Shown: piece by piece, positions 6,067 to 54,472 of the stretch
Layout of the letters: every line of letters starts with the position of its first letter
Numbering within the stretch: the first letter of the stretch is position 1
Assembly (NCBI GenBank): GCA_945787325.1
Contig: CALZHP010000004.1
Span: 2,262-66,261 of the forward strand
Length of the DNA stretch: 64,000 nucleotides
DNA from: an uncultured Desulfobulbaceae bacterium
GTDB lineage: Bacteria; Desulfobacterota; Desulfobulbia; Desulfobulbales; BM004
Reading direction: 5' to 3'
Translations under genes and position numbers: made by a program
The notes under the pieces: generated by a model
What the model was told of the DNA's origin: nothing
Databases searched by the model: none
What the model saw: only the letters and a program-made list of their open reading frames with translations

Positions 6067-6141
6067 TAATAATGAACACATATATAATTTGAGATATTTT
6101 ATTTATGATATTGGTAAGCTAATAAAAATTTGGGGATACAG

Positions 6142-6762
6142 ATGAAGAAGGCAATGATTAGTTTAACTTCCATGTTTTTGGTAGTTGGCTTGATTGGAGT
6201 TGCAAATGCGACGTTGATCAATTTCGATTTTACCGGCGGTGACAATACATGGAATACAGACAGTGCAATTTTTACAGGTGATGACGGTTCAACAAGGACT
6301 CGAGCTACTGCTATTCCTTCCAGCAGTAGAAACCTTTATTTAGGTCAAGATGGTCTTGGTGTCTACGGTTTTCGTGACAGCGCTGAATATGATGATGCGC
6401 AAGTCGATGGATATCAAATTAATGAATGGATTAATTTTGACTTTCGTAGTCCTGTCAGATTGGTTTCAGCAAGTTTTAGTCATGTTGGCTCCAACGATGA
6501 TTTTGCCTTTTATGCCAATGGTAGATATTTCCAAAGTACAGACATCCCAAATAGTCATACATATACGTTCCAACAGACATGGATATCGAGTCGCTTTTGG
6601 ATCGGTGCAGTTGCTGATAACGATGATTTTTTCATATCAGGTATACAAATTGACGATGGTGCACATGGTGCCCCTGTTCCCGAACCAGCCACTATGATGC
6701 TGATGGGCACAGGTCTTGCCGGTCTAGCGTTCTCCCGTCGTAAAAAAGCAAATAAAGCGTAA
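6142..6762 (+). CDS. PEP-CTERM sorting-domain secreted protein 3
   Basis: Signal peptide MKKAMISLTSMFLVVGLIGVANA. The C-terminus is VPEPATMMLMGTGLAGLAFSRRKKANKA. The ORF-track start at 6130 is an upstream TTG. Confidence 0.9.
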   Translation: MKKAMISLTSMFLVVGLIGVANATLINFDFTGGDNTWNTDSAIFTGDDGSTRTRATAIPSSSRNLYLGQDGLGVYGFRDSAEYDDAQVDGYQINEWINFDFRSPVRLVSASFSHVGSNDDFAFYANGRYFQSTDIPNSHTYTFQQTWISSRFWIGAVADNDDFFISGIQIDDGAHGAPVPEPATMMLMGTGLAGLAFSRRKKANKA

Positions 6763-25614: not shown

Positions 25615-26292
25615 ATGGAAAAACCGATGGTGGAACTAGTCAAGGTCAGCAAAATATATCCACCGGATGTTGTTGCCCTCGAGAATGTTTCCATACTCAT
25701 AGAAAAAGGAGAGATGGTTTTTTTGACCGGAAAAAGCGGGGCCGGCAAAACAACACTCCTCAAACTTATATGTGGTCTGGAACAGCCAGACCAAGGCCTA
25801 ATTGAAGTTGCCGGCAAAGACCTAAGCCGCATCAGACCAAAAGACATGCCTTATATACGACAGAAAACAGGTATGGCTTACCAGGACTTCAAACTCCTGC
25901 CTGATCAAACAGTTGCACAGAATATTGCCATGCCAATGCAGGTTGTATTCAGATCTATACGCTCCATAAAAAACAGGGTCTCTGAGCTCCTCGAAAAATT
26001 GAAGCTGGATGGGAAACACGATACCCTGGCCTGTAATCTTTCAAGAGGAGAACAGCAGCGTGTTGCTCTTGCAAGAGCGGTAGCCAACCTGCCCCCACTC
26101 ATTCTTGCAGACGAGCCCACCGGCAATCTGGACGGTGCAACAACCAGGCTTGTTATGGAACTCCTTGAAGAATGCAATGATGCTGGTTCAACTATTATCC
26201 TGGCCACCCACGACAAGTCCATATACAGCAATACAGCTCACAGGGCCGTTCAAATACGAGATGGTTATTTCGTTCCAACGGAGAACAATTAA
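25615..26292 (+). CDS. ftsE: cell division ABC transporter ATP-binding protein FtsE
   Basis: GKSGAGKTT, LSRGEQQRV and ILADEPTG. Confidence 0.92.
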   Translation: MEKPMVELVKVSKIYPPDVVALENVSILIEKGEMVFLTGKSGAGKTTLLKLICGLEQPDQGLIEVAGKDLSRIRPKDMPYIRQKTGMAYQDFKLLPDQTVAQNIAMPMQVVFRSIRSIKNRVSELLEKLKLDGKHDTLACNLSRGEQQRVALARAVANLPPLILADEPTGNLDGATTRLVMELLEECNDAGSTIILATHDKSIYSNTAHRAVQIRDGYFVPTENN

Positions 26293-26299
26293 GCAAGAT

Positions 26300-27187
26300 A
26301 TGAAATTTTTTTCGTATATTCTATCACAAACAGGAAGAAATTTACTGCAGACTTGGGGATCACAGCTGATGACACTGCTGACTGTCGGTCTTTCGGTTCT
26401 TATTTTTTCTTTTTTTCTTCTCATTAATACGAACATCATTAAAGCAGGGGCAAAACTTGGTGACGACATACGCTTGATACTTTTCCTTGAAAAAGAGCCC
26501 GACCCTGCTATGACAGCACTGTATAGAAAAAAAATCACAGACTTTACCGATGTTAAAGAAATTAGATTTATCAGCCGTGATATGGCATATAAAAAACTTG
26601 CCGACCAACTTGGTAATGATAGTGATGTACTTGCGGATATGGGTTCCGACTTTCTCCCACCTTCGATAGAAGTTTATCCTAATATCGACCTTAAAGGTCT
26701 GTCTGAGATTAAACTTTTTTCAGAGTATCTTGAGAAACTGTCTGGAGTTGTAAAAGTGCAATATGGCCAGGAATGGATAGAACGTTTTCATTATTTCACT
26801 GAACTACTTCGAGTCATTATTATATTGAGCGGCGGCCTGCTTGTACTGACAACAATATTTATGGTTTCCTATACCATCAAACTTTCGGTTGTCGCGCGGC
26901 AGGCGGAACTGAAAATCCTTCGTCTTATTGGAGCTACAAACAGCTATATAAGCACCCCTTTTCTCGTAGAAGGATTTCTGCAGGGCCTTATAGGTGCTGC
27001 AATTGGGCTAACTTCGCTCTATTTTCTTTTTGATTGGATCAAAAAGAACTTTAACAATCCAGGTCTGTTCAATTTCTTTGAATTTTCTTACATACCAACA
27101 TCAACAACTTTGTTAATTCTTGCAGTGAGTGTTATTCTTTGCACCGGCGGCAGCATCGCAGCAATGCGAAAATATCTTCGTATCTGA
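26300..27187 (+). CDS. ftsX: cell division permease FtsX
   Basis: Four-TM permease with a periplasmic domain. The start is taken at ATG 26300, just after the ftsE stop. The ORF-track start at 26105 overlaps ftsE in another frame. Confidence 0.88.
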   Translation: MKFFSYILSQTGRNLLQTWGSQLMTLLTVGLSVLIFSFFLLINTNIIKAGAKLGDDIRLILFLEKEPDPAMTALYRKKITDFTDVKEIRFISRDMAYKKLADQLGNDSDVLADMGSDFLPPSIEVYPNIDLKGLSEIKLFSEYLEKLSGVVKVQYGQEWIERFHYFTELLRVIIILSGGLLVLTTIFMVSYTIKLSVVARQAELKILRLIGATNSYISTPFLVEGFLQGLIGAAIGLTSLYFLFDWIKKNFNNPGLFNFFEFSYIPTSTTLLILAVSVILCTGGSIAAMRKYLRI

Positions 27188-27189
27188 TA

Positions 27190-28809
27190 ATGAAATCAAG
27201 GTGTTTAAAACCATTCAGTTTCGATCGGGAGCAATTGTTACCAGTTAAGTGGACCTTAGGAACATTTATTCCTCTCCCTTACAGGAGCCATAAGTATCCC
27301 GGCACCAACATCATGCTAAATGTTGTGATCCTCGTATTTCTTTTCTCAATATTCAACGCGCCTTTCAGTTCTGCAGCAACAAGCGAAGAGATAAAAGATT
27401 CCGAAAATCAACAAAGTATCATCAAATTAAAATCCAAGAAATTTGATTCACTGATTAATAACAAAAAATCAGAGAAAAAGCGTACCATCAGGATCAAACC
27501 ACTGCTAAAGGAAGAGCAGGATAGTGAACCCGTTACCAATGATGTTAATGAAAAAAAGTCAACTTCAATCACTATCCGTCAGGCTGAACAAATTAAACCT
27601 GTGCAAGAAGAATCTCCTGAAAAGGTTGAGAATCTAAGTAGGAAAGAGTTGCTTGAACAACACCGTATAATCCTTAACAAAGCAGATGTTCTTAAAAAAG
27701 ATGACGTCATCAAATATGTAGGCTCTCAACTTGAGGAAATCAATATTCTTGCAGCAATTGAGAAAATTGATATGAAACTGGCCTCTCAGAGAGCGAGAAT
27801 TATATCTCTCCAGAATAAATACAAGAGCCAGGAGAAACTGCTTCAACAGAGACAGGAATTAATAGATAAAAAAAACAGTGAAAAAGAAAAGGTAAAACAA
27901 CATGTTAAAAAAAGGTTAAGCGCATACTACCATATGGGCGGCACCGGGGTCATGAACGTTATCTTTTCCACTGAATCATTTGCCGACCTTCTGGTTTTTG
28001 AAGAGTATTTTCACCATTTGCTGCTTTATGATCAAAATATAATTCGTTCTTACCTTGATAAAATAGATAAGCTGTCAAAAGCACAGGATTCGCTCATACT
28101 CGAGAGAAAAAAGCTTCCAGAACTGCTTGATCAACTTCAGGAGGAAAAAGAATTCCTGGCGACAACGTTCGATGAAAAATTGGCACTGTTAACAAAGGTT
28201 AAAACTGAAAAGAAACTATATCAGCAGGCCGTTTCAGAAATTGAAAAAGCGGCGGCCGATCTGGCTGTATCAATTGAAAAATTCAAGGAAGATACCCGGA
28301 AGCAAACCTTGGCTTCTTATCCTGATTCTACGGCAAACCAATCGACATCATCAGGAAAAACTAAAAAAGGTAAAACAATTGCCGCCTTCAAAGGTAAGCT
28401 AGATCCTCCTCTTTCTGGATTGGTGATAAAAAATTACGGAAAACATACCAATAAGAAATTCGGTATAAATACTTTTGAAAACGGTATTGATATCAAGGCC
28501 GAACAGGGTACGTTGATTAAGGCTGTTTTTGATGGAAGAATTGTCAATGCCGGTTACCTGCGTGGATATGGCAATATGATCATCATCGACCATGGACAGC
28601 GGTATTATTCCGTCATCTCCCGGGTTGGCACACTTTTACGAGAAGAAGGCGAATCAGTTATTGCCGGTGATACTATCGGCATCATGGGTGAAAATAAAAC
28701 TTTGCTTGGAGAAGGGCTGCATTTTGAGTTTCGTCACGGCTCGGAACCGCAGAATCCTCTGGCATGGCTGAATAAAAAGAAATTAATTGTACGAGCCAAG
28801 ACTAAATAA
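27190..28809 (+). CDS. envC: EnvC-like murein hydrolase activator (coiled coil plus degenerate LytM/M23 domain)
   Basis: Long coiled-coil region. The C-terminal LytM domain is GIDIKA..GYGNMIIIDHG..GLHFEFRH, and it lacks the first catalytic His. It follows ftsEX. The start could be ATG 27313 (MLNVVILVFLF signal). Confidence 0.8.
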   Translation: MKSRCLKPFSFDREQLLPVKWTLGTFIPLPYRSHKYPGTNIMLNVVILVFLFSIFNAPFSSAATSEEIKDSENQQSIIKLKSKKFDSLINNKKSEKKRTIRIKPLLKEEQDSEPVTNDVNEKKSTSITIRQAEQIKPVQEESPEKVENLSRKELLEQHRIILNKADVLKKDDVIKYVGSQLEEINILAAIEKIDMKLASQRARIISLQNKYKSQEKLLQQRQELIDKKNSEKEKVKQHVKKRLSAYYHMGGTGVMNVIFSTESFADLLVFEEYFHHLLLYDQNIIRSYLDKIDKLSKAQDSLILERKKLPELLDQLQEEKEFLATTFDEKLALLTKVKTEKKLYQQAVSEIEKAAADLAVSIEKFKEDTRKQTLASYPDSTANQSTSSGKTKKGKTIAAFKGKLDPPLSGLVIKNYGKHTNKKFGINTFENGIDIKAEQGTLIKAVFDGRIVNAGYLRGYGNMIIIDHGQRYYSVISRVGTLLREEGESVIAGDTIGIMGENKTLLGEGLHFEFRHGSEPQNPLAWLNKKKLIVRAKTK

Positions 28810-28969
28810 CAGGTTGGCAGAGTTTTCCTAGCCGATTTATTATATTGTCCAATAGCCTTTAACATGATAAAAATGAAGTCTTATAAAGAATTTATTTCAT
28901 ATAATTAAACTTTTTGTTGAACTAAACAGTTTATACTGTTTTTTAAAAAACACTTTTGAGTACAGTCTC

Positions 28970-30319
28970 ATGACCCTGAAAAACAAAAGGAAACCTACTT
29001 TAAAAGCATTGCTTACAGCTGCTGTTTTCTGTCTGCCCCTGCTTTTTACTATGCCCTGCTTTTCCAAAGAACAATCTTCAACTGTTCAGGAAACTTATAA
29101 AAATCTGGAAATGTTCTCCAATGTTCTGAGCATAATCCAACAAAATTATGTTGAACCAATAGACACCCAGGATGTTATTGAAGGAGCTATCAGGGGAATG
29201 CTAATGACACTTGATCCCCATTCATCTTTCATGAACCCAGACGACTTTAAGGAACTTCAGGTTGAGACTAAGGGCAGCTTCAGCGGTATAGGCATTGAAA
29301 TAACCATCAAGGATGGAATCCTGACTGTTGTTTCACCAATCGAGGGAACCCCAGCATACGAGAAGGGCATTAAAGCAGGTGACAAAATAATTAAAATTGA
29401 AAATGAGCCGACCAAGGATATGTCCTTGATGGATGCTGTTAAAAGACTGCGAGGTTTCAAGGGTACACCGGTTACTATTTCAGTTCACCGTCAAGGATGG
29501 ACTGAACTTCAAGAGATAACCATCATTAGAGATGTCATTCCAATTCACAGTGTCAAAGCTAAAATTCTTGAGCCGGGTTTCGCTTATGTCCGCATAACAA
29601 ATTTCCAGTCACAGACAAGTAAAGACCTGAAAAAAAGCTTAAAAAGTCTCACCAAAGAAACTGAAATTAAAGGGCTTATTCTCGACCTCAGAAACAACCC
29701 GGGAGGGCTCCTTGATCAATCAGTCAAAATTTCCGATCTATTTCTTGAAGAAGGATTAATTGTTTTCACCAAGGGGCGACATACAAACCAGGACATGGAA
29801 TTCAAAGCGCATTCAACCGGCACTCTCTATTCTTTTCCAATTGTTGTTCTTGTGAATGAAGGTTCCGCAAGTGCTTCGGAAATTGTCGCTGGTGCGCTCC
29901 AGGATAACAAACGAGCCCTTGTTCTTGGTACACAGACTTTTGGTAAGGGTTCTGTACAGACTATAATACCCATGAATGATGGCGCCGGTTTACGCTTAAC
30001 AACCGCGAGATATTATACACCAAGCGGTGTGTCAATTCAGGCCAAGGGTATCACACCGGATATAATTATACCATTTAAGCCAGTCAATGGTGATGAGGAA
30101 GTGGAAACTAAACAGCCAAAATTCCTTCGTGAAAAAGATCTTAAGCGTCACATGGAAAACGATAATGAGTTGAAAAATGGAGATGCTGAAAAAAAAGAAG
30201 AAAATGACACTGGGGAAGAAGAGAAAAAAGCTGACGAGATTAAGAAAGACAACCAGCTATATACAGCACTACTTATTCTAAAAAGTTTAAATGTTTTATC
30301 TGTCGTCACCGGTAACTGA
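28970..30319 (+). CDS. ctpA: carboxy-terminal processing protease (S41)
   Basis: PDZ domain plus the S41 catalytic region GSASASEIVAGALQD and TFGKGSVQ. Confidence 0.9.
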   Translation: MTLKNKRKPTLKALLTAAVFCLPLLFTMPCFSKEQSSTVQETYKNLEMFSNVLSIIQQNYVEPIDTQDVIEGAIRGMLMTLDPHSSFMNPDDFKELQVETKGSFSGIGIEITIKDGILTVVSPIEGTPAYEKGIKAGDKIIKIENEPTKDMSLMDAVKRLRGFKGTPVTISVHRQGWTELQEITIIRDVIPIHSVKAKILEPGFAYVRITNFQSQTSKDLKKSLKSLTKETEIKGLILDLRNNPGGLLDQSVKISDLFLEEGLIVFTKGRHTNQDMEFKAHSTGTLYSFPIVVLVNEGSASASEIVAGALQDNKRALVLGTQTFGKGSVQTIIPMNDGAGLRLTTARYYTPSGVSIQAKGITPDIIIPFKPVNGDEEVETKQPKFLREKDLKRHMENDNELKNGDAEKKEENDTGEEEKKADEIKKDNQLYTALLILKSLNVLSVVTGN

Positions 30320-35589: not shown

Positions 35590-35955
35590 ATGATAAATGA
35601 TTATGCCGGGCACTACTTCAATACTGCTATTAGGAAGCAGCATCCCGTCAGAAGAAACTCATCATATAAGAAACTCCTCGGGGTTAACGGCACTTGGATG
35701 ATGTGGAAAAGTATTGGTGTAATGCTCGTAATGACTATGACAATAGGAATTACTTCCACTGTCTGGTTCGGCTGGCAGATTAAAAATTCACTCAGCAGTA
35801 TTGGCATTGAAAGAACGACTCAACACAACATCGTAACGGAAAACAATCAACTGGCTGCTAAGCGCGATCGGCTGCTGGTAAGAGAACAGATTGAAGCTGC
35901 GGCAAAAAAACTGGGCCTTGTTACTCCCACAGCACGTCAGCTTCGCAAACCGTAG
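35590..35955 (+). CDS. ftsL: cell division protein FtsL
   Basis: A single TM segment followed by a coiled coil, ending in QIEAAAKKLGLVTP. It sits in the conserved dcw position. Confidence 0.75.
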   Translation: MINDYAGHYFNTAIRKQHPVRRNSSYKKLLGVNGTWMMWKSIGVMLVMTMTIGITSTVWFGWQIKNSLSSIGIERTTQHNIVTENNQLAAKRDRLLVREQIEAAAKKLGLVTPTARQLRKP

Positions 35956-35966
35956 GATCAACATGA

Positions 35967-37913
35967 ATGAAATTCCGGCCTCATCGGCATAAACTGCCTG
36001 AGCTCAAAAGGAAACTTTTACTGGTAACCGGGTTAACTGTTTTCCTGGTTCTGGCCGGTATTTCTACAGCCTTCCTAAAGACACATCCTGACTCTTTGTC
36101 CGGTTTTATTAACCGGCAGGACCATCAACCGAAAAAAGAACTGAAAAACTACCGCGGCAAGATTTACGATAGGAACTTCAGGGAGTTAGCCGGCAGTTAT
36201 CAGACTTGTGCGGTTTACGCCCGCCCTTTAGAAATTGAGAATACAGAATTTGTTGCGGACCGCCTCACACAGACACTTGATCTGGATAAAGCTAAACTTC
36301 TGTCTGATCTTAAGTCAGAAAGGGGTTTCGTTTGGCTGATAGAAGCTCTTGACACTGAGAGTGCCTCAATTATATCAGATCTCAATTTGAAAGGAATTTA
36401 CGTAACAGACAAAACGAGACGGCTTTATTCGAACAACAAAACTGCAGCTCATATACTTGGTTTTACTGAAAACGAACAGGGATTGGATGGCGTTGAACTG
36501 CAATACAACAGTATTCTTAAAGGTGACACACTGCAGACAATTGATCTGCCTATGATTGAAGTTGAAGAAAATAACGGGCTCCCTAAAGGTGCTGAACTCA
36601 TATTAACACTGGATCTTAAAATCCAGAATATACTGGAGTCAAATCTCAGTAAAGTTATGAAAAAAAATGGTGCTACATCCGCCAAAGCAATAATTATGGA
36701 TCCGAACAACGGTGCCATTCTGGCAATGGCTAGCCTGCCTTCCTATGACCCCAACCGTTACTGGGAATACAGTGCTGGAGAAAGAAGTAATCGAGCAATA
36801 AATGAGCTTTTATTTACCAAAGGACTTGATGGTTTTATAAACAGCGTAATCCAAAAAGAAGCCATATTGAAGGAATTACCATCCAAGAAGAACCGAAAAG
36901 ATAAACCAAGTGAATATATAGTATTAGCTCCACGAAAAATTAAGAAAAAAATTACTGACAGAAGAGCTGCCTTTTATGCTGAGAATTTACAAGATAAGGT
37001 TGTCAGTTTTGCTGGAAACAGCAAATTCAATATTGATCTTCCAGCAGGTACAGATTCTTCTGACAGCAGTTACTCCACTTCTTTCTGGGTCGATACATTA
37101 AAACATTCATCCGCACTACAGCTTCTCTCAGATTTCGCTATCCTCATAAATAGCGGAAAAAATGTAGGCCCACACATGCTGGCCGGCATTCTGGACAAAT
37201 CGACCGGACAAACTCTGCAAACAAAATTCAGCAAATTGAATCGAACAATTTTAGACAATGAATCAGGGGAGTCTGCTTTAAACTTTATCACCGAACTTGG
37301 TACAGCCGGACCCAAAAAATCCTTTTTTTTGGAAGCCATTTTAGAACACGAGCCGGCCAAAACTTCACAAACTGAAGCAGATAGTCAAAATCAAAAAGTG
37401 AAAGATTTTCAAGAATCAAAATATAACAGTGTCATGTTGGCCGCCATTCCGTCAGAGAAGCCGGAACTAATTATGATTACAGCCTTTGATGGCTTAAATG
37501 TCCAGCGGAACAAAGGGGCCAAATTCAAATCACCTTCATTAAATATCGGTAAAAAAATATTACCGAAAGTTCTGCCTCTCAGCCAAACAAAAATTGTTTC
37601 AGCAAACCAGCCTGTTGGGGATATGGAGAACGCTGCGATTCTAGAAGCTTCTTTACACAAAATAAAAGCGAAACGAAAAGCTGGCAATAAATTAGTTCAA
37701 AAAGATAAGCCTGTTAACTTCAAAATGCCTGATGTTACAGGAAAAAGTTTACGCGGCGCCCTCCAGTCATTACAGCAGTATAGCTTGACAATTAACATTA
37801 ATGGTTCAGGAAAAATTACAGAACAATACCCCGAGGCCGGAACTACAACAGTGAGTGGGCAAAGTTGCAGTCTCAAACTGAAGACGCAAACGAAATTTCA
37901 GCCAGCACATTAA
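35967..37913 (+). CDS. ftsI: FtsI/PBP3-like protein with a degenerate (non-catalytic) transpeptidase domain and a C-terminal PASTA domain
   Basis: N-terminal TM anchor and PBP dimer domain (YRGKIYDRN, HILGF). IIMDPNNGAILAMASLPSYDPN aligns to the transpeptidase entry region. The SxxK position reads FTKGLDGF (nt 36813-36836) and the KTG position reads ELGTAG. PASTA domain: MPDVTGKSLRGALQSLQ. Confidence 0.8.
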   Translation: MKFRPHRHKLPELKRKLLLVTGLTVFLVLAGISTAFLKTHPDSLSGFINRQDHQPKKELKNYRGKIYDRNFRELAGSYQTCAVYARPLEIENTEFVADRLTQTLDLDKAKLLSDLKSERGFVWLIEALDTESASIISDLNLKGIYVTDKTRRLYSNNKTAAHILGFTENEQGLDGVELQYNSILKGDTLQTIDLPMIEVEENNGLPKGAELILTLDLKIQNILESNLSKVMKKNGATSAKAIIMDPNNGAILAMASLPSYDPNRYWEYSAGERSNRAINELLFTKGLDGFINSVIQKEAILKELPSKKNRKDKPSEYIVLAPRKIKKKITDRRAAFYAENLQDKVVSFAGNSKFNIDLPAGTDSSDSSYSTSFWVDTLKHSSALQLLSDFAILINSGKNVGPHMLAGILDKSTGQTLQTKFSKLNRTILDNESGESALNFITELGTAGPKKSFFLEAILEHEPAKTSQTEADSQNQKVKDFQESKYNSVMLAAIPSEKPELIMITAFDGLNVQRNKGAKFKSPSLNIGKKILPKVLPLSQTKIVSANQPVGDMENAAILEASLHKIKAKRKAGNKLVQKDKPVNFKMPDVTGKSLRGALQSLQQYSLTININGSGKITEQYPEAGTTTVSGQSCSLKLKTQTKFQPAH

Positions 37914-41068: not shown

Positions 41069-42148
41069 ATGCTTTACCACTTACTATATCCACTCAGCAG
41101 CTTCTTCAGCGGATTTAACGTATTCCGCTATATAACTTTCAGGTGCATAGGTGCATCTATCACAGCCTTTCTGATCGTGATATATGTCGGACCGGCATTT
41201 ATACGGTTAATTAAGAAACACCAGATCGGCCAGGTAATCAGAGAGGACGGCCCGGAAACACATTTCGATAAACAGGGTGTACCAACCATGGGCGGTGTGT
41301 TAATCCTCCTTACCATCGCCTTGGTAACTCTATTGTGGGTTGATTTGAGTAATCGATATGTGTGGCTGGTATTGTCCGTCACTCTCTGGTTCGGTCTGGT
41401 GGGTACGATTGATGATCTACGCAAAATAAAGAAAAAGAACAGTTCTGGTCTCAGTGCTCGAGCGAAATTTATCCTGCAGATAGTTGGTGCCTCAATTGTA
41501 GGAATTTTTCTTTTCCTGCACCCGCAGTTCGACGGTCACCTCAATTTCCCGTTTTTCAAGAACATCCGCCCTGATCTAGGTTGGTGGTACATTTTATTTG
41601 CTGTTCTCGTCATAGTCGGAGCTTCTAACGCGGTTAATCTAACAGATGGACTGGACGGATTGGTTACCGGCCCCACTGTTATCACTGGCAGTGTATATCT
41701 TATCTTTTCCTACCTCGCAGGCCACGCGGTACTGGCTGATTACCTGCAAATTGTTTTTGTTCCCGGCGCCGGTGAAGTAGCCGTTTTTTGCGGCGCACTG
41801 GTAGGCAGTTGCCTTGGTTTTCTCTGGTTTAACTCATTTCCTGCCCAAATATTTATGGGTGACGTTGGTTCATTGGCGCTTGGAGGAGCACTGGGAACTA
41901 TAGCAATAATAACAAAACAGGAATTCCTTCTCGCCATTGTAGGCGGGATTTTTGTAATGGAAGCGGTCTCAGTAATTTTACAGGTTGGTTTTTTTAAGTT
42001 AAGCGGTGGAAAAAGGATTTTTTTAATGGCTCCTTTCCATCACCATTTTGAGAAAAAAGGGTGGGCAGAACCAAAGGTGGTTGTCCGCTTCTGGATTGTT
42101 TCAATAATTCTAGGCCTTGTGGCCCTGGCAACACTTAAATTGAGATAA
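41069..42148 (+). CDS. mraY: phospho-MurNAc-pentapeptide translocase MraY
   Basis: Polytopic membrane protein with [21 protein letters not shown] and PFHHHFE. Confidence 0.95.
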
Positions 42149-43638
42149 TGACTGAAATATTTCGACAAAACAAGTGCAGGATTTCACCAAACACCCACAT
42201 TGTAGTTGTTGGTCTGGGTAAGTCTGGGATTGCAGCTGTCCGGTTTTTTTTAAATCGGGGGTGCCAGGTTTCCGTCTCTGATTCGAGTCCAATAGATTCT
42301 TGGGACCAAAAGCTGATATGCGAATTGAAGGAAAAGAATGTTTTCATTGAAGGTGGGAAACACACCTCTGAGCTGTTCTGCTCAGCTGACATAATTATGG
42401 TGAGTCCCGGCGTTCCCCTCGATTTGCCTGTTCTTAAAGAAGCTCGAACACACTCTATACCTGTTGTAGGAGAAATGGCATTCACAGCACAATTTATGAA
42501 AACACCAATTGTAGCTGTAACAGGAACCAACGGTAAGACAACAGTTACTACTTTACTGGGGGATATTTTCAAGGCGAGTGGTCAAAACGTGTTTGTCGGC
42601 GGCAACATAGGAACTCCACTCTTTGAATACATGGATAGTCCACAAGACAAAGACATTGCTGTTATTGAAGTCAGCAGTTTCCAACTTGATACGGCTGGTG
42701 GAGAGGGCTGTTTCAGGCCAAAAGCTGCCGTTTTACTTAATATTTCTCAAGATCACCTCGATCGATATGAATCTTTCAATGCCTATGCTCGTTCAAAGTT
42801 CAGTATCTTCGCGGCCCAGAAAGAATCTGACTTTTCCGTGATCAACGTCGATGACCCGGAAATCACTTCCCGTATTCATCTCTTACCGCCCAGCAAACAT
42901 CTATCATTCGGTCATGAGAAAATTACCAATGCTGGTTCCTCAGTAAGAGGCTACAAAGTATTTCTTTCAGAAAAAGTCACTCCTTCAGGATTGCAGGAAA
43001 AATATGATCTGGAAGATAGCAGCCTAAGTGAATTGCCAAACTCACTGAATGCTGCAGCTGCAATCCTAATAGCCAGGGTTATGGGTTGTAGTGAAGAGTG
43101 TATAAACAAAGGCATTAAGAGTTTTAGTCCCCTTCCCCATCGGTTAAGTCTCGTCGATGATATCGGAGGTGTCAGCTACTATGATGACTCGAAAGCAACC
43201 AACATAGGCGCCACACTTTCAGCTCTCAACTCTATAAAAAAACCGGTAATACTCATTGCTGGCGGCCGGGACAAGGGGGGAGATTACAGGCAACTGCACA
43301 AAGCCATAAAGAAAAAAGTAAAAGCCCTTGTGCTTTTAGGTGAAGCCAGAGGCAAAATGATTGATTCCTTTAAAGGCCTGACTTTGATCGAATCTGCTGA
43401 CACCATGGCAGATGCGGTAAATTCAGCTGCAACTCTTGCTCAACAGGGGGATGTGGTTCTGCTATCCCCCGCATGTTCCAGTTTTGACATGTTCTCCAGT
43501 TATGCAGAACGGGGAGAAATCTTCAAAAAAGCTGTCAATGATCTAAAAAAAAAACTGGCGGGTAGCCAATTGCCTGCTGCAGTTTGGGGGATGTCCGCAG
43601 CCAAGTGTCGAATCGCAAATGAAGCGACACAAAACTAA
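42148..43638 (+). CDS. murD: UDP-MurNAc-L-Ala:D-Glu ligase MurD (with a roughly 30-aa C-terminal extension)
   Basis: VVGLGKSGIAA, VTGTNGKTT and DDSKATN. It shares 1 nt with the mraY stop. Confidence 0.92.
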   Translation: MTEIFRQNKCRISPNTHIVVVGLGKSGIAAVRFFLNRGCQVSVSDSSPIDSWDQKLICELKEKNVFIEGGKHTSELFCSADIIMVSPGVPLDLPVLKEARTHSIPVVGEMAFTAQFMKTPIVAVTGTNGKTTVTTLLGDIFKASGQNVFVGGNIGTPLFEYMDSPQDKDIAVIEVSSFQLDTAGGEGCFRPKAAVLLNISQDHLDRYESFNAYARSKFSIFAAQKESDFSVINVDDPEITSRIHLLPPSKHLSFGHEKITNAGSSVRGYKVFLSEKVTPSGLQEKYDLEDSSLSELPNSLNAAAAILIARVMGCSEECINKGIKSFSPLPHRLSLVDDIGGVSYYDDSKATNIGATLSALNSIKKPVILIAGGRDKGGDYRQLHKAIKKKVKALVLLGEARGKMIDSFKGLTLIESADTMADAVNSAATLAQQGDVVLLSPACSSFDMFSSYAERGEIFKKAVNDLKKKLAGSQLPAAVWGMSAAKCRIANEATQN

Positions 43639-43676
43639 GGACAAATCAACATCAATTACGAGAAAGGAGAAAAATT

Positions 43677-43877
43677 ATGACGAAGGCAAAATGCTGCATC
43701 TGTAAACAGGAAAAAGATATATTTGGCTGGGTATTGATGACACAACACAAAAGCCTGTCACTGGCATATTGTCCGGAATGTTATCAGGACAAAAAAGGAG
43801 ATGAGCAGGAGCAACTGGTCGATTGTTCAAACTTTATCGACGATACGAGTGATCTGCTTTTTTGCTTTAAAAGCTGA
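43677..43877 (+). CDS. mini zinc-ribbon protein, paralogue 1 (CxxC...CPxC), function unknown
   Basis: 66 aa reading KCCICKQEKDIFGW..LSLAYCPECY. A strong AAAGGAG RBS lies 8 nt upstream. No TM segment. Confidence 0.7.
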   Translation: MTKAKCCICKQEKDIFGWVLMTQHKSLSLAYCPECYQDKKGDEQEQLVDCSNFIDDTSDLLFCFKS

Positions 43878-43941
43878 TTCCAAAGATCCAGTATCAATTT
43901 TGCATCAGATTTTCAAATCACCAGCCTAGAGGAGGGGCAGC

Positions 43942-44160
43942 ATGAGTGTAAGAACTATTTGCTGTGTTTGCCGAAAAACAAAAGACCTAAACGGGTGGAT
44001 CGACAAATTTATTTCTCAATACAAAACGCTTTCTCATGGATATTGCCCGGAGTGTTATGAAGAAACTATCAAAAAAATTGATAAGGCAAAAGCAAAAGGA
44101 AAGCACAAACCAAATATCTCAGAAACTTTTGATATGACTGGTGAAGATTTTTTAAGTTAG
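43942..44160 (+). CDS. mini zinc-ribbon protein, paralogue 2 (CxxC...CPxC), function unknown
   Basis: 72 aa reading ICCVCRKTKDLNGW..LSHGYCPECY, with a Lys-rich tail. A strong GAGGAGG RBS precedes it. Confidence 0.7.
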   Translation: MSVRTICCVCRKTKDLNGWIDKFISQYKTLSHGYCPECYEETIKKIDKAKAKGKHKPNISETFDMTGEDFLS

Positions 44161-44263
44161 AGGCCATAATATTTCTGATGTTAGCTATTAATCATATAGC
44201 ATCATAGTAGTTATACTGTGCATATATAAGGAATTATTATTGTAAATTTACGAGTTACAAAAC

Positions 44264-45421
44264 TTGAATAAATCAGACAAGGACCCAATACGAATGGTTG
44301 TTACCGGAGGTGGAACCGGTGGGCATCTTTTTCCCGGTATTGCAGTAGCAGAAGAAATATTGCGGCGGTTTCCGGATGGGCGTGTTCTTTTCATTGGAAC
44401 TAACCGCCTTGTTGATAGCAGTATCCTTAATGATCAGTCATTTGAAACTACCAGTATCAAAAGCAGCGGTATAAAGGGCATGAGTTTTATCTCCCGTTTA
44501 AAAGCACTTTTGCAAATACCTTACAGTGTCATTCAGGCAGCAGGCATTTTACGGAGGTTCAAAGCTGATCTTGTACTCGGAGTAGGAGGTTATGTGACAG
44601 GTCCCGTTGTACTTGCAAGCCGGATAATGGGCGTACCTGCATGCATACATGAACAGAATTCTGTGCCGGGAATGGCCAATCGATTACTTGGTCATATTTG
44701 CAATAAAGTATTCCTTTCAATACCCGGCAGTGAAAAATATTTTCCTTCCGGAAAAACTCTTTTAACTGGCAATCCCGTTAGGCAAGAATTGCTTAAATCA
44801 ATAAACACTCAAATTTCAGAAATTTCAAGTAATGACAGGAAGGTGCCTACCCTTCTTATCCTGGGCGGAAGCCAGGGGGCTCACAGGGTAAATATATTAA
44901 TGCTTGAATGTGTAAAAAAGCTCTTGTCTGACATGCCGAACAGCTTTAATATAGTCCACCAAACCGGCAGTGCCGATAAAGATTATGTGAAAAAAACCTA
45001 TAGTGAATTGGGTATATCAGCAGATGTCTCTGCATTCATTAAAAATATGAATGAGGTCTACCAAAAGGCGGACCTCATAATCTCAAGAGCTGGGGCCACA
45101 ACTCTCGCCGAGCTTGCCGTGCTCGGCAAGCCCTCGATATTAATTCCATACCCCTACGCCGCTGATAATCATCAGGAAAAAAATGGGCAATATCTCTGCA
45201 ATTCCGGTGGGGCCAGAATGTTTATTGAAGCAGGTCTAACTGGTGAAAAACTGGCAGGAGAAATTTCCAAACTCCTACAGGACCCTGAATCTCTCAAGAT
45301 AATGGGTGAAAAAATCAAGCAAATGGGAAAACCTGAAGCAACCGACGCAATTGTAAACCAAAGCCTTACTTTACTGGGCATCAAATATAACAAAACTACT
45401 TCTGCAAACACTGATGTATAA
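44264..45421 (+). CDS. murG: lipid II GlcNAc transferase MurG
   Basis: [10 protein letters not shown] and RAGATTLAE. The start is TTG 44264, or possibly ATG 44294. Confidence 0.92.
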
Positions 45422-46814: not shown

Positions 46815-47768
46815 GTGCCGTCACTGCAACATTTATCACAAGAGTTAACGCAGTTCTGGCAAGGTAAGATTTTATGGGATTTTCCCATGGCCCGATTCTC
46901 TACATTTAAGGTTGGCGGGCCTGCCGAAGCTGTACTCGTAGCTGAGAGCCAGGATGAGCTGGTCATGCTGGTACAATGGCTTCATAAAAACAAAATCCAC
47001 AGTTATGTTATCGGCAAGGGAAGCAATATTCTGGTGCCGGACACAGGATTGAAGGGCGCTGTAATAGTTCTTGGGAATAAATTTGCTTCCCTTGAAATAG
47101 AGCCGAATGATGATCAAGAAACGAAAAAATCTACTACACTGGTTAATGCTGGGGCAGCCTGCTTGCTTAATAAACTTGTAAAGTATTCAACTGAAAACAA
47201 TTTAAGCGGTTTGGAGTTTGCGGCAGGCATTCCAGGAAGTGTGGGCGGAGCAATAGTAATGAATGCAGGAGCATGGGGTGGTGAAATGAGTGATGCCATC
47301 CACTCTGTTACTTTTATGGACCCAGAAGGTATTATAATGAGTCCCGGGAAAGAGCAACTTCAATTTGCTTACAGAAAATGGGGCGGCAGCAAAAAAAGTA
47401 TTGTGCTGTCCGGTGTCTTTTCTTTAACAAAAGGAGAAAAAAATAAGATATCAGCAACCTGCAAGAAGTATCAAAAAGCTCGAAAAATTAAACAACCCCT
47501 GGGAATACCCAGTGCAGGTTCTTTTTTTAAAAACCCTCAGAGTCTGCCGGCAGGAAAACTTATTGAAGATGCAGGTTTGAAGGGTTTCAGTATTGGCGGA
47601 GCTATGGTCTCTCCAGTACATGCCAACTTCATTGTTAACACAGGGAAAGCCACTGCAGACGATGTTTTTGCCGTTATGCAGGAAGTACAGGATAAAGTTC
47701 TTCATAGCTCAGGTATCATGCTGGAACCGGAAGTCCATATTCTTGGAGAGGAGGGCTGTCAGGCATGA
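46815..47768 (+). CDS. murB: UDP-N-acetylenolpyruvoylglucosamine reductase MurB
   Basis: FAD-binding region FKVGGPAE, GKGSNIL and SAGSFFKNP. GTG start. Confidence 0.9.
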   Translation: MPSLQHLSQELTQFWQGKILWDFPMARFSTFKVGGPAEAVLVAESQDELVMLVQWLHKNKIHSYVIGKGSNILVPDTGLKGAVIVLGNKFASLEIEPNDDQETKKSTTLVNAGAACLLNKLVKYSTENNLSGLEFAAGIPGSVGGAIVMNAGAWGGEMSDAIHSVTFMDPEGIIMSPGKEQLQFAYRKWGGSKKSIVLSGVFSLTKGEKNKISATCKKYQKARKIKQPLGIPSAGSFFKNPQSLPAGKLIEDAGLKGFSIGGAMVSPVHANFIVNTGKATADDVFAVMQEVQDKVLHSSGIMLEPEVHILGEEGCQA

Positions 47769-48628
47769 AATCTTTCCGTTTAAGAAAAAGGCAGAAAACA
47801 TACAGGAGCTCATCTCGACCTACAGATTATAATACGAGAAAACGTACTAGAATCACGACATACTTTAATAAAAAACATATATTCCAGCTTCTGTCGATAT
47901 TGCTTCTGTTCTGTGTCGGAAGTGTTGCATCGATGGTTATATACCAGAAGCTCTGCAAGTCTGATTTTTTTAGAATAACAAACACATATATTAAAGGTTG
48001 TGAACATACAAACAAGACTGAAATACTTGAGCAGTCGGGTATTGACATACACACTAACCTGCTGGCCTTGGATGTATCAGCTGTTAAATCTAAGCTTGAA
48101 GAACACATTTGGGTGCACCACGTGGACATTTCACGGGTCTGGCCGAATCAGCTGAAATTTATTGTTTAAGAGAGAAAACCTTTGGCACTTCTCAACACCA
48201 GTAATGGGCTCTATTACATTGATAAATACGGCAAAAAAATAACTCATGTAAATATGCCCGGAGACCTTGATTTCCCTGTCATAACTGGTATAAATGAAAA
48301 CACTATGACTGCTCGGTCGAATGAGGTAAAATCCACTGTGCTTGACAACGCTCTCACCTTTTTACGATACGCAGGTCGCGGCAATCCAATATTACCGAAG
48401 CAGAACATTTCTGAAATCCATATTACAGAAAAAGGCGGTATGGTTCTTTATCTTCTGGATCACACTTTTCCCATTTATCTTGGACAGGAGAAAATAAGCG
48501 GTCAATACAACCGTCTCATCAAGGTCCTCAAGGGTCTGTATAAGAAAGATGAACTCTCAAATATTGCCTATATCGATATGGATTATCAGGAAGATAAAGT
48601 CCTGGTTGGCAAAACGAAATCTGGTTAA
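47765..48628 (+). pseudogene. ftsQ: ftsQ interrupted by a single in-frame TAA (48170-48172); otherwise full length
   Basis: The two ORF-track pieces (47765..48169 and 48182..48628) are in the same frame. The junction reads VWPNQLKFIV*ERKPLALL, which matches the conserved FtsQ POTRA motif WPxxL.I.V.ER.P.A. Confidence 0.75.
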
Positions 48629-51279: not shown

Positions 51280-53055
51280 ATGGGCCGAAAGAATTCTTCT
51301 GCCGCTAAAGCCTCAGAGCATAATGATTATCTGTCGCGCGAAGCAGGAGGATGGAAGAAAAAATGGAAAGGAAAGCTTCCTGTAGCTCTTATCTACCCCA
51401 ACACGTACCCGGTCGGCATGTCAAATCTGGGCTACCAACTGGTATACGGCCTGCTAAATGAACATCCTGATATTGTCGCGGAAAGAATTTTTCTAACGGA
51501 TGGGGATAAAAGGCCTGTATCAGTTGAATCCTGCAGGCCTTTACTGGATTTCCCTATACTCCTCTGTTCAATAAGTTTTGAACATGATTATCTTCAACTC
51601 CTGAAATTGCTCGATCTCGGCGGGCTTCCCCCCTTAGCCGCAGATCGAGCAAGGACAGGATTTAATTTTTCAGGTTCTTCCCAAAAGCCTCCAGGCACCG
51701 GACCACTTGTGATTGCCGGCGGCGTTGCCACCTTTATTAACCCCGAACCACTCGCCCCCTTTATCGACCTGTTCATCATCGGTGAAGCAGAACCAATATT
51801 ACCGCAAGTTATGGAATTTCTTCGTTCAAAAACCGGTCCTGTCGATAGAAATACATTACTCAGGGAACTGGCCGTAAAGTACCAGGGATGCTACGTGCCT
51901 GAATTATATGAGGAAACCTATAACGATGATGGCACTCTTTCACCAACTACAGCTTCTTCTGGACTGCCTAAAAGAATAAAAAAAATTACACTATCCAGCC
52001 TACAGGACAAAGCCGGTCATTCGCTTGTAATGAGTCCTGACGCTGAGTTTGCCAACCTGTATATGACCGAACTTGGACGCGGATGCAGCAGGGGCTGCCG
52101 CTTCTGCGCAGCTGGATTTGTCTACAGACCTCCACGCCTGTGGAGCGCTGATACAATAATCAGCGCGCTTAATGAACGCCTTCCCGGCAGTAAACGAGTT
52201 GGTCTTCTGGGCATGGAAATGGCCAGGCGTGAAGACCTTGTATCCATCGCCGACTATCTGCTAAAAGATTCCTGTTCCCTTTCATTTTCCTCATTGAGGG
52301 CTGATGTCATAACCCCTGAACTGCTTGATCTGTTGGGTCAGAGCGGACTCAAATCAGCAGCAATCGCACCCGACGGAGGATCTGAACGTCTAAGAAAAGT
52401 CATCAACAAAAATATTACTGAAAAAGATCTGCTAACTGCCGCTGGAGCACTTGTCAATGCTGGGGTAATGAATCTCAAGCTCTATTTCATGATTGGCCTT
52501 CCAACTGAAACCGATGATGACATTCTGGAAATGGTTGAATTGACACGCAGGATAAAGAAGAAAATTCTTAAAATCGGGCAGCAAAAGAAAAAGCTCGCGA
52601 CACTTACTTTAAGTGTTAACAATTTCATTCCAAAACCATGGACACCATTCCAGTACGAATCCTTTACACCCATTTCTCTATTGAAAAAAAGGATAAAACT
52701 CCTACGAAGTAAGCTGGCAGGTGAATCTAATATTAAAATTACGGTCGACAGCCCAGAAAAGGCGTATTTCCAGGCCGTTCTTGCCCGCGGAGACCGTAAG
52801 GTAGGACGCGTACTTCTTCAAATTGCCAGATCAGGCAAAAACTGGCGCCAGGTTTTTAAACAGGAGGGAATAAAGCCAGAAGATTATGCCATGCGGAAAA
52901 GGGAACAATTTGAAGTCTTTCCTTGGGAAATCATTGACCATGGTATTGATCGGCAGTATCTTTGGGCCGAATACAAAAAAGCATTGATTGGAAAAGCAAC
53001 CGGTCCTTGCGATACGGAAATATGTAAACGCTGCGGAGTATGTAATGACCAGTGA
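51280..53055 (+). CDS. B12-binding-domain radical SAM protein (TIGR03960-like, name recalled from memory)
   Basis: CxxxCxxC cluster GCSRGCRFCAAG. The N-terminal region YPNTYPVGMSNLGYQ is typical of this family. Confidence 0.8.
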   Translation: MGRKNSSAAKASEHNDYLSREAGGWKKKWKGKLPVALIYPNTYPVGMSNLGYQLVYGLLNEHPDIVAERIFLTDGDKRPVSVESCRPLLDFPILLCSISFEHDYLQLLKLLDLGGLPPLAADRARTGFNFSGSSQKPPGTGPLVIAGGVATFINPEPLAPFIDLFIIGEAEPILPQVMEFLRSKTGPVDRNTLLRELAVKYQGCYVPELYEETYNDDGTLSPTTASSGLPKRIKKITLSSLQDKAGHSLVMSPDAEFANLYMTELGRGCSRGCRFCAAGFVYRPPRLWSADTIISALNERLPGSKRVGLLGMEMARREDLVSIADYLLKDSCSLSFSSLRADVITPELLDLLGQSGLKSAAIAPDGGSERLRKVINKNITEKDLLTAAGALVNAGVMNLKLYFMIGLPTETDDDILEMVELTRRIKKKILKIGQQKKKLATLTLSVNNFIPKPWTPFQYESFTPISLLKKRIKLLRSKLAGESNIKITVDSPEKAYFQAVLARGDRKVGRVLLQIARSGKNWRQVFKQEGIKPEDYAMRKREQFEVFPWEIIDHGIDRQYLWAEYKKALIGKATGPCDTEICKRCGVCNDQ

Positions 53056-54472
53056 TGCAGTTAAAACAGATCTGGCAAGCCTGAAACCATTCAGGCTTGT
53101 TAAATTTTTCTCATTCACGGGCCTGAGTGTTGTTCTTGTTTTCACAATGGTCCTTTCGTGGGTTATTTCCAACAACGCCCAGAAAGTATTGTTGGAACGA
53201 AGCGAGTCATATGCTCTTCTTCTTGCTGAAAACCTCAACAAACAGGTCTTCCTTCAGTTCGTGCTACCGACTGCATTACGTTACGGCGGTATCGCTCTAA
53301 GGAATCCCAAACAGTTTGAGAGGCTTGATAATGTTGTGCGCAATACAACCCTGGGATTGAACGTGGATTCTGTGACTATCTTTGACTCGCAGGAAAATAT
53401 CATTTCTTACAGCACAATTCAGGAGCAAGTTGGCAAGGAAGATGTGGGTGGTATGGAATATAAAAAAGCTCTAGCGGGCGAAAATTCCACTATCCTGATT
53501 TCGAGAGGGAATCTGCTCGACCTGTTTCCCGGTTCTTCAGACATTTCGTGTAAATTGAAAACGTATATTCCCTTCCGCCAGGAACACAATCCTGACAAAG
53601 AACTCATAGGTGTTACAGAAATTGTCCTCGATCTGTCAGACGACCTCAGGGCTATTATTAAACTTCAGGGCACGATTATTATTGTTTCATTACTTGTAAT
53701 GAGCATGTTGTTTGTCGTTCTGCGACTCATAGTGGAACGAGCAGACCGCATTATTGAGGCGAGGGCGCAGGAAAGACGAAAACTTGAAATCAAACTGCAT
53801 GATGCCGAAAGGCTGGCAACACTTGGAAAAATGGTTGCTGCTGTTTCACATGAGATAAAAAGCCCATTGGGGATCATCAGAAGTACTGCTGAAATACTAA
53901 ACAAACGAGCAAAAAGCGAAAGCATTGGTAGTGATAACCTTACAAATATAATAATCGAAGAAACTACGCGGCTGAATGGGATTGTCATGGAGTTTCTGGA
54001 CTTCGCAAGACCGCATATTCCTCAATTAAAACTTTCTTCAATCAATGATATTCTCTTGAAAGTCATACAGTTTATGGAACCGGAGTTCAACAAGAACGAC
54101 ATTAAGCTGGTCAGCAATCTTGATCCTTCGCTTAACCCGCTTGAAGTGGACCAGAACCTACTGCATAGAGGCTTTCTGAATATATTAGTCAATGCCGTCC
54201 AGGCTATGCCGGAAGGCGGGACTTTAACGGTTTCCTCCAAAAGATTGAGTAGAAAAGGCTCCGCTCTTATAGAAATTACAGATACCGGGTCCGGCATGTC
54301 CCCGGAAAAGCAGGAAAAGATATTCACGCCCTTTTTCACAGATAAAAACCGGGGCACTGGCCTCGGCCTTCCCATTGTAAGAAACATTATCGACAGTCAC
54401 AGCGGGACGATAGAAGTGGTCAGCAAAGAAGGTGAAGGAACAACCTTTTCTATTGTTCTAGGAAATCAGTAG
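53045..54472 (+). CDS. sensor histidine kinase
   Basis: Two TM segments flank a periplasmic domain. H-box SHEIKSPLG, N-box LVNAVQAM, G-boxes DTGSGM and GTGLGL. The ATG at 53045 overlaps the radical-SAM stop by 11 nt. Confidence 0.88.
   Translation: MTSDAVKTDLASLKPFRLVKFFSFTGLSVVLVFTMVLSWVISNNAQKVLLERSESYALLLAENLNKQVFLQFVLPTALRYGGIALRNPKQFERLDNVVRNTTLGLNVDSVTIFDSQENIISYSTIQEQVGKEDVGGMEYKKALAGENSTILISRGNLLDLFPGSSDISCKLKTYIPFRQEHNPDKELIGVTEIVLDLSDDLRAIIKLQGTIIIVSLLVMSMLFVVLRLIVERADRIIEARAQERRKLEIKLHDAERLATLGKMVAAVSHEIKSPLGIIRSTAEILNKRAKSESIGSDNLTNIIIEETTRLNGIVMEFLDFARPHIPQLKLSSINDILLKVIQFMEPEFNKNDIKLVSNLDPSLNPLEVDQNLLHRGFLNILVNAVQAMPEGGTLTVSSKRLSRKGSALIEITDTGSGMSPEKQEKIFTPFFTDKNRGTGLGLPIVRNIIDSHSGTIEVVSKEGEGTTFSIVLGNQ

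Follow-up and report, generated by a model that had tools for sequence, protein, structure and literature searches.

Small genes for predicted zinc-ribbon proteins at the ftsW position of the dcw cluster in a Desulfobulbaceae clade with a putative pseudo-transpeptidase FtsI

The cluster of division and cell wall genes (dcw cluster) in a 64,000-nt stretch of contig CALZHP010000004.1 from an uncultured Desulfobulbaceae bacterium (the window, meaning this stretch at its full length) contains no ftsW. Two small tandem genes, here called mini1 and mini2, are located between murD and murG, where ftsW is found in most bacteria, as in the E. coli reference cluster, and their products are predicted to be small soluble proteins of the zinc-ribbon type. 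The dcw-encoded FtsI of the same bacterium and its relatives appears to be a conserved pseudo-transpeptidase. The FtsW-FtsI pair is commonly regarded both as a drug target and as the universal synthase of septal peptidoglycan. Overall, a seemingly ordinary zinc ribbon of an unstudied family was found at an extraordinary location, in a clade whose septal synthase appears to have decayed. The explanation that we favor, with moderate confidence, combines the assignment of the mini proteins to this family, their residence in the dcw cluster and the loss of FtsW-FtsI with a role as metal-binding adaptors, that is, as the free-standing form of a signaling output module.

Results

Absence of ftsW from the dcw cluster

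The genes of the cluster are arranged in the order mraZ, rsmH, an ftsL-like open reading frame (ORF), ftsI, murE, murF, mraY, murD, mini1, mini2, murG, murC, murB, ftsQ, ftsA, and ftsZ. An earlier interpretation made from the letters of the DNA (the sequence-only reading) had stated that the canonical slot, and indeed the entire 64 kb, lacks ftsW, and both statements were borne out by Pfam scans for PF01098 and by tblastn with E. coli FtsW. PF01098 matched neither the mini ORFs nor the dcw genes, and it matched none of 28 further ORFs of at least 117 aa, a selection from the ORF list (minimum length, 100 aa) that takes in all non-nested ORFs from 185 aa upward. The best tblastn match in the window had an E value of 2.7, and neither a gene of the SEDS (shape, elongation, division and sporulation) family nor a remnant of one was found. 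The same query retrieved nothing from 96 loci, and a SEDS gene was present in none of the 27 dcw loci compared. The claim that the murD-murG gap encodes no polytopic membrane protein also held: the maximum Kyte-Doolittle values in a 19-aa window were 0.63 for mini1 and 0.16 for mini2, and no transmembrane segment was found. The mini proteins therefore fall outside the definition of a SEDS protein (polytopic, approximately 350-420 aa, with a PF01098 match).

For two genomes each of Ca. Electrothrix and Desulfobulbus, the absence of ftsW, zipA, and ftsN and the presence of mreBCD-pbpA-rodA have been reported (Geerlings et al. 2021, PMC7873302). The absence of ftsW, which is lineage-wide, had thus already been described for Desulfobulbaceae. 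At most one small hypothetical gene within the clusters is mentioned in that study. The small gene itself, its family, its duplication, and the motif loss of FtsI are not described there, and FtsI is treated as the active septal synthase. As far as literature searches reach, the pseudo-enzyme FtsI and the identity of the small slot gene are new.

The murD-murG gap measures 625 to 655 nt, depending on the start codon of murG. In the sequence-only reading this start was placed at 44264, giving a gap of 626 nt. The TTG at 44264 is the earliest possible start, but the MurG protein annotated in the database (P0308, 375 aa) begins with the ATG at 44294. The strong Shine-Dalgarno sequences that had been noted for both genes are situated 8 nt upstream of the ATG of mini1 and 6 nt upstream of that of mini2 (Table 1). 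No intrinsic terminator was predicted in the gap by a promoter/terminator scan. The two genes are encoded on the same strand as the surrounding dcw genes with tight spacing, and their position is kept in relatives. Judging from these features, the mini genes appear to be members of the dcw operon.

Paralogy and selective maintenance of mini1 and mini2

BLASTP alignment of the two products (45% identity over 38 aa, E = 5e-14) confirmed that they are paralogs, as had been proposed. In addition, a 57-nt direct repeat with 72% identity (43733-43789 and 44007-44063) is the trace of the duplication at the DNA level. The core of mini2 reads ICCVCxKTKxxxGW(x12)SHGYCPECY and is followed by a helix and a disordered tail. 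The isoelectric point (pI) of mini2 is 8.6, a Lys-rich segment follows the helix, and the cores are mildly basic. mini1 keeps the four Cys residues (CCIC...CPEC), the Trp, and the Ser, has SLA where a near-invariant SHG is expected, and ends in an acidic tail, with a pI of 4.9.

The tandem pair was also found downstream of murD in L095, a 750-nt contig of a related organism, in which the mini1 ortholog (P0011) shares 70% identity with mini1. Nei-Gojobori comparison of the window with L095 gave dN/dS values of 0.20 for mini1 and 0.105 for mini2 overall, and of 0.08 and 0.024, respectively, in the core (first 40 codons). mini2 shares 56-70% identity with the slot genes of L010, L011, L014, and L015. 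These results indicate that mini2 is the conserved ortholog of the single-copy slot gene of relatives, and that mini1 is a diverged duplicate which lost the His-Gly of SHG and gained an acidic tail. It is well supported by these comparisons that the mini genes are real, selectively maintained genes that look expressed. The suggestion that they might simply be fill left after a deletion was ruled out by their conservation and by purifying selection.

Occupancy of the murD-murG slot in related bacteria

Of the 27 dcw loci, among which the window is counted, 24 have a mini gene in the murD-murG slot. This proportion overstates the frequency of the gene because most of these loci were retrieved via the mini protein. 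The slot genes encode 19 distinct protein sequences that have diverged to approximately 30% identity. Besides the window and L095, the only loci with two copies among the 27, a single mini gene occupies the slot in 22 loci of diverse uncultured Desulfobulbaceae-like bacteria (L005-8, L010, L011-13, L014-17, L020-22, L025/26, L030, L034, L099, and L100/101). In every one of them murD is located upstream, murG starts 4-80 nt downstream, and ftsW is absent. Relatives are listed in the databases as Desulfobulbaceae bacterium, Desulfobacterales bacterium SG8_35, and Thermodesulfobacteriota bacterium. Duplicated stand-alone copies at this position had been regarded as unexpected; the duplication is indeed specific to the lineage of the window, but occupancy of the slot by a single copy is the usual state of the whole clade.

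Loss of the catalytic motifs of FtsI

FtsW works with a cognate class B penicillin-binding protein (bPBP), and FtsI is its partner. Pfam scans of the window FtsI gave matches to PBP_dimer and PASTA, together with a Transpeptidase match of only 35 bits that covers aa 241-279, and the NCBIfam matches end near aa 325. The relatives of this protein form a separate clade (E = 1e-93 to 1e-58, 30-36% identity), and a gap precedes the canonical FtsI and SpoVD proteins (E <= 1e-42). A MAFFT alignment was made of 25 clade members, the FtsI proteins of L006, L010, and L011, and seven canonical references including E. coli FtsI. An active bPBP is recognized by the motifs SxxK, SxN, and K(T/S)G. The window FtsI and 27 relatives have none of the three where they should align, whereas all three are kept in 7/7 references (E. 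coli FtsI and six homologs). For example, the canonical YEPGSTFK is replaced by VYPGELxxIF or VFPGGLxxxF in the clade. The FtsI proteins of L096, L097, and L099 likewise lack the catalytic motifs, and P0189-P0247 belong to the clade that shows this loss. The dcw-encoded FtsI of this clade thus appears, from its alignment, to be a conserved pseudo-transpeptidase in which the scaffold is retained. The degeneration of FtsI together with the absence of FtsW argues that the septal FtsW-FtsI synthase was lost as an enzyme in this clade and not relocated.

Predicted fold and metal site of the mini proteins

In an alignment of 35 sequences, C7, C10, W19, S31, Y34, C35, P36, E37, and C38 are invariant, and C8, K14, H32, and G33 are nearly so. 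The AlphaFold2 (AF2) model of mini2 had a predicted local distance difference test (pLDDT) score of 74.8 overall and of 82-94 in the core. It shows a beta-ribbon plus a helix: the two knuckles are carried by four short strands, the helix spans residues 36-51, and the tail (58-72) is disordered. The invariant pairs C7-x2-C10 and C35-P-x-C38 lie on short strands of this model, as expected of a zinc ribbon. Taken together, the alignment and the model provide good support for the prediction that the mini proteins are small soluble proteins of the Cys4(+His) zinc-ribbon type with a metal site.

The two CxxC/CPxC knuckles on short beta-hairpins in the AF2 model are shared with classical zinc ribbons and rubredoxins. 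On the other hand, no significant match to a classical zinc ribbon was obtained in sequence or fold, and the mini family is set apart by the Trp, by the Ser-His-Gly before the second knuckle, and by the helix at the C-terminus. Assignment to rubredoxin (PF00301, CxxCG...CPxCG) failed, since there was no Pfam match at E <= 1 and neither knuckle is followed by Gly. With ZAS (zinc-binding anti-sigma)/zf-HC2 proteins the mini proteins share a His shortly before CxxC and a distant Cys, and by this analogy the arrangement is possibly a redox-sensitive zinc site. However, the spacing is H-x2-C-x2-C and not H-x3-C-x2-C, PF13490 gave no match at E <= 1, and there is no anti-sigma domain. The pair of extracytoplasmic function (ECF) sigma and anti-sigma genes that adjoins a stand-alone member in L019 is a matter of neighborhood only.

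Foldseek searches against PDB and BFVD returned nothing significant. Ribosomal eL42/L44e gave a weak sequence echo of the mini proteins (E = 0.02-0.2). This echo and those of HNH/EndoVII and Fur/Zur, all weak and non-significant, were rejected as generic zinc-knuckle similarity.

A family shared with signaling proteins

Searches of Pfam, NCBIfam, PADLOC, and PHROGs gave no significant match to the mini proteins, nor did a PDB sequence search. The motif strings occur in no searchable paper, and tblastn against plasmids returned a single, unannotated match. A word-indexed search yielded 43 homologs, of which 42 stand alone and have a length of 56-74 aa. With a profile built from 35 mini proteins, HMMER was run against 1.84 billion cluster representatives, of which 5135 matched at E <= 1e-3 and 175 at E <= 1e-10; nearly all of the best 150 of the 5135 are stand-alone proteins of 52-92 aa.

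In the sequence-only reading, the core of the mini proteins had been likened to a module with the pattern CxxCKK.RDD.G.W...SHG.CPxC at the C-termini of signaling proteins. The likeness proved correct, because profile searching retrieves such proteins, and the module was rightly described as uncharacterized, having no match in Pfam, NCBIfam, PDB, or the literature. A metagenome scan with the mini profile and the pattern SHGYCPEC detected 360 loci. In the best 80 of these, the proteins are mostly 180-980 aa long and end with the module, which takes up their final ~60 residues in a long form that reads LPICxxCKKIRDDxGYWxQIExYIxxHSxAxFSHGYCPEC. It is preceded by REC, HAMP, CHASE, MASE3, ABM+PAS, or CheB-CheR-PAS domains, and further architectures consist of PAS with one or two modules. 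In the proteins that combine HAMP, CHASE, or MASE3 with the module, no other part could act as the output, and the module would therefore be the transmitter or output element.

The signaling module and the mini proteins have in common the skeleton of CxxC, K, G-W, and S-H-G-aromatic-C-P-x-C, followed by a helix. The mini proteins differ in that they stand alone and are not located at the C-terminus of a multidomain signaling protein, the linker between Trp and SHG is approximately 8 residues shorter, an extra Cys is present (CCxC), and no signaling helix precedes the core; mini1 additionally lacks the His-Gly. The shared skeleton and the retrieval by profile search give good support to the view that the mini proteins represent a short-linker, stand-alone subfamily of a large unnamed family, whose long-linker members are C-terminal modules in output position.

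Two proteins with double modules were noted, P0101 (343 aa; PAS-module-linker-module) and P0173 (554 aa; a repeated unit of membrane domain plus module). Their double modules echo the tandem duplication of the mini gene.

In Thermodesulfobacteriota metagenome-assembled genomes (L001-4, L027/28, and L102/103), genes for a distinct clade of stand-alone mini proteins lie downstream of dnaA, on its strand and at a distance of 22-150 nt. The association with dcw is a property of one clade and not of the family. It is notable that both recurrent operonic positions, dcw and dnaA, are cell-cycle loci.

Discussion

The explanation favored here can be put as follows. The module would bind one metal ion via CxxC...CPxC and, with its invariant Trp/Ser-His face and the helix after it, would contact a cytoplasmic partner that is itself conserved. 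When fused to a sensor, it would act as a transmitter that engages this partner in a signal-dependent manner. The free protein expressed from the dcw operon, or in the other clade from the dnaA operon, would engage the same partner in step with the expression of cell-cycle genes, and the outcome would be a tuning of peptidoglycan-precursor or divisome activity. In this scheme the mini protein would be a dispensable modulator and not a substitute for the FtsW glycosyltransferase, and mini1 may cooperate with mini2 or oppose it (examples would be a heterodimer and a competitor). The whole of this mechanism is offered tentatively, with low confidence, and is the more doubtful part of the explanation. 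A division-linked regulatory role of the mini proteins, which the sequence-only reading had raised, is considered possible.

Besides the bias in the retrieval of the dcw loci described above, several observations weigh against this explanation. Among three lineages retrieved through FtsI or MurG, one (L099) has a mini gene and two (L096 and L097/L098) have none. In the latter two, murD abuts murG, neither ftsW nor a mini gene is present, and FtsI is dead (L096 and L097). Whatever function the mini gene has must be unnecessary in these two lineages or have another source. Other stand-alone members of the family adjoin genes for ECF sigma/anti-sigma factors, a MacB-type ABC transporter, an ATP-grasp protein, and an Imm5-like protein, and a division-specific role therefore cannot be generalized to the family. 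Finally, the AF2 model of mini1 had low confidence (pLDDT 54).

The proposal that the mini gene is obligatory wherever ftsW has been lost was ruled out by L096 and L097/L098, and the lack of both genes in these lineages argues against the mini gene standing in for ftsW. L096 is nested among mini-bearing loci in a neighbor-joining tree of MurG, which is star-like and has weak support, and this placement suggests that the mini gene was lost secondarily in L096. Both of these lineages have a single fused murE-murF gene of approximately 1030 aa (L096, 12036-15140; L097, 3314-6400).

Two other general roles were considered. The mini proteins could be nucleic-acid-binding zinc ribbons that regulate their own operons (dcw and dnaA), the fused module being a DNA-binding output domain. 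The REC- and PAS-module architectures are similar to those of one- and two-component regulators, for which DNA binding is the usual output; a location within the regulated operons would suit autoregulation; and the mildly basic cores, the Lys-rich segment and pI of mini2, and the structural echoes of Fur/Zur C-terminal domains and of zinc-stabilized HNH/EndoVII-like folds, weak and non-significant as they are, point in the same direction. However, membrane sensors (HAMP, CHASE, and MASE3), for which a DNA-binding output is uncommon, carry the module as a direct fusion as well, mini1 is acidic overall, and there is neither a helix-turn-helix nor a significant match to a known DNA- or RNA-binding zinc ribbon. 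We regard such a function as conceivable but unlikely. The other role, that of a general metal or redox protein such as a zinc/iron buffer or a thiol switch, would have nothing to do with division, and the gene would use the strong constitutive expression of dcw at the junction vacated by ftsW. This would fit the Cys4 site with its adjacent His, since H-x2-C-x2-C is reminiscent of redox-sensitive zinc sites and rubredoxin knuckles, as well as the many unrelated neighborhoods of family members and the dispensability of the gene in L096 and L097. It is hard to reconcile with a position that is kept even though the proteins have diverged to approximately 30% identity, and with a second recurrent position next to dnaA. 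Moreover, a module that is the sole possible output of sensors points to the engagement of a partner and not to the storage of metal. A purely metal-related function accordingly seems quite unlikely.

A direct connection with the vacated slot appears weaker. If the mini proteins specifically compensated for the lost FtsW-FtsI, for example by bringing RodA-PBP2 or a class A PBP to the septum or activating it there, the exact positional replacement of ftsW would be explained, as would the dead FtsI in every mini-bearing cluster with a readable FtsI (window, L006, L010, L011, and L099). Such compensation is nevertheless highly improbable: L096 and L097/L098 lost ftsW and the catalysis of FtsI and keep no mini gene, the mini proteins are soluble and cytoplasmic without a transmembrane segment, and the family is mostly unrelated to dcw. 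The shortness of the ORFs and their location exactly where the ftsW deletion must have happened could suggest that they have no function and are filler or a scar of this event. This idea is effectively refuted by the core dN/dS values of 0.02-0.08, by the invariant Cys/Trp/Ser pattern in 19 distinct sequences, and by the family of 5135 representatives. The related candidate, a leftover tail of ftsW, was rejected because there is no similarity to FtsW and Pfam revealed no SEDS fusion in the 10 longest of the best 150 representatives.

In Clostridioides difficile, the dcw cluster has no FtsW/FtsI pair of the canonical kind (PMC10693644). A catalytically inactive division bPBP is tolerated in B. 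subtilis and C. difficile, according to a summary given in PMC12516126. These bacteria set a precedent for division without a canonical active FtsW-FtsI and for a dead bPBP kept as a scaffold. The present case differs in that ftsW is physically absent from the cluster, a gene for a small predicted zinc ribbon is found in its slot, and the bPBP appears to have lost all three motifs by evolution across a whole diderm clade. It is probable that this lineage builds its division wall in an unusual way.

These sulfur-cycling diderms, relatives of the cable bacteria, have no ftsW in the cluster (none at all in the published genomes) and an FtsI without catalytic motifs, and the clade is thus a natural experiment on alternative ways of building a septum. 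The family of the slot gene comprises thousands of clusters, is nameless, and occupies the output position in many sensor proteins. Finding the partner of the module would give a function to thousands of signaling proteins and would test a link between signaling and the cell cycle. A bolder version of the favored explanation holds that the mini ribbons are the free form of an unrecognized output domain that targets the cell-cycle machinery and couples a metal or redox signal to septal synthesis by a non-canonical synthase. We consider this improbable; if true, it would explain the recurrent placement in the dcw operon and directly after dnaA, and the clade would divide by a divisome of a new design.

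Organization of the murD-murG interval and other features of the window

The coordinates of the features discussed are listed in Table 1. The murD-mini1 spacer is much more conserved than the mini1-mini2 spacer in a DNA alignment of the window and L095. In L095 the stop codon of murD lies approximately 40 nt earlier, and the MurD of the window is therefore slightly extended at its C-terminus. The spacer of 133 nt that separates mini2 from murG has a GC content of about 30%, far below that of its surroundings, and it is longer than the 4-80 nt between the mini gene and murG in relatives. It may harbor an internal promoter or operator. Rfam gave nothing in the window.

Table 1. Positions in the window of ftsI and of the features between murD and murG
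Feature	Position	Strand	Basis or content
ftsI homolog	35967..37913	+	PBP_dimer, PASTA, transpeptidase-like domain
murD (UDP-MurNAc-L-Ala--D-Glu ligase)	42148..43638	+	Pfam MurD-like_N, Mur_ligase_M, Mur_ligase_C
murD-mini1 spacer	43639..43676	+	Shine-Dalgarno sequence AAAGGAG
mini1, 66 aa	43677..43877	+	ORF
mini1-mini2 spacer	43878..43941	+	Shine-Dalgarno sequence GAGGAGG
mini2, 72 aa	43942..44160	+	ORF
mini2-murG spacer	44161..44293	+	Composition; AT-rich
murG	44294..45421	+	Pfam Glyco_transf_28 N- and C-terminal domains

Within the dcw cluster, ftsQ (47765-48628) is broken by one in-frame TAA at 48167-48169, beyond which the frame continues unchanged. The TAA aligns with Lys, Arg, or Gln of relatives and is either a single-base nonsense mutation or a sequencing error. 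A 121-aa ORF at 35590-35955, in the position of ftsL, gave weak matches to FtsL models (E = 0.01-0.05) and no Pfam match; ftsL is often undetected in Desulfobulbaceae (PMC7873302).

Directly 3' of ftsZ, a Radical_SAM_N2-type gene followed by a histidine kinase gene was found in the window (51280-54472) and in the distant relatives L010 (17175-20219), L097 (16140-19149), and L005 (12611-12955), and this pair seems to be a conserved addition to the dcw cluster. On the other side of the cluster, a block consisting of ftsE, ftsX, an M23 (EnvC-like) peptidase gene, and a CtpA-type S41 protease gene is located at 25615-30319 of the window and at 8-4537 of L096. Next come era and a gene of the RNase II family, immediately upstream of mraZ, and L096 keeps this order. 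At the left end of the window, three PEP-CTERM-tagged proteins are encoded near a sigma-54 activator (53-988, 1547-2149, 4365-5093 on the minus strand, and 6130-6762).

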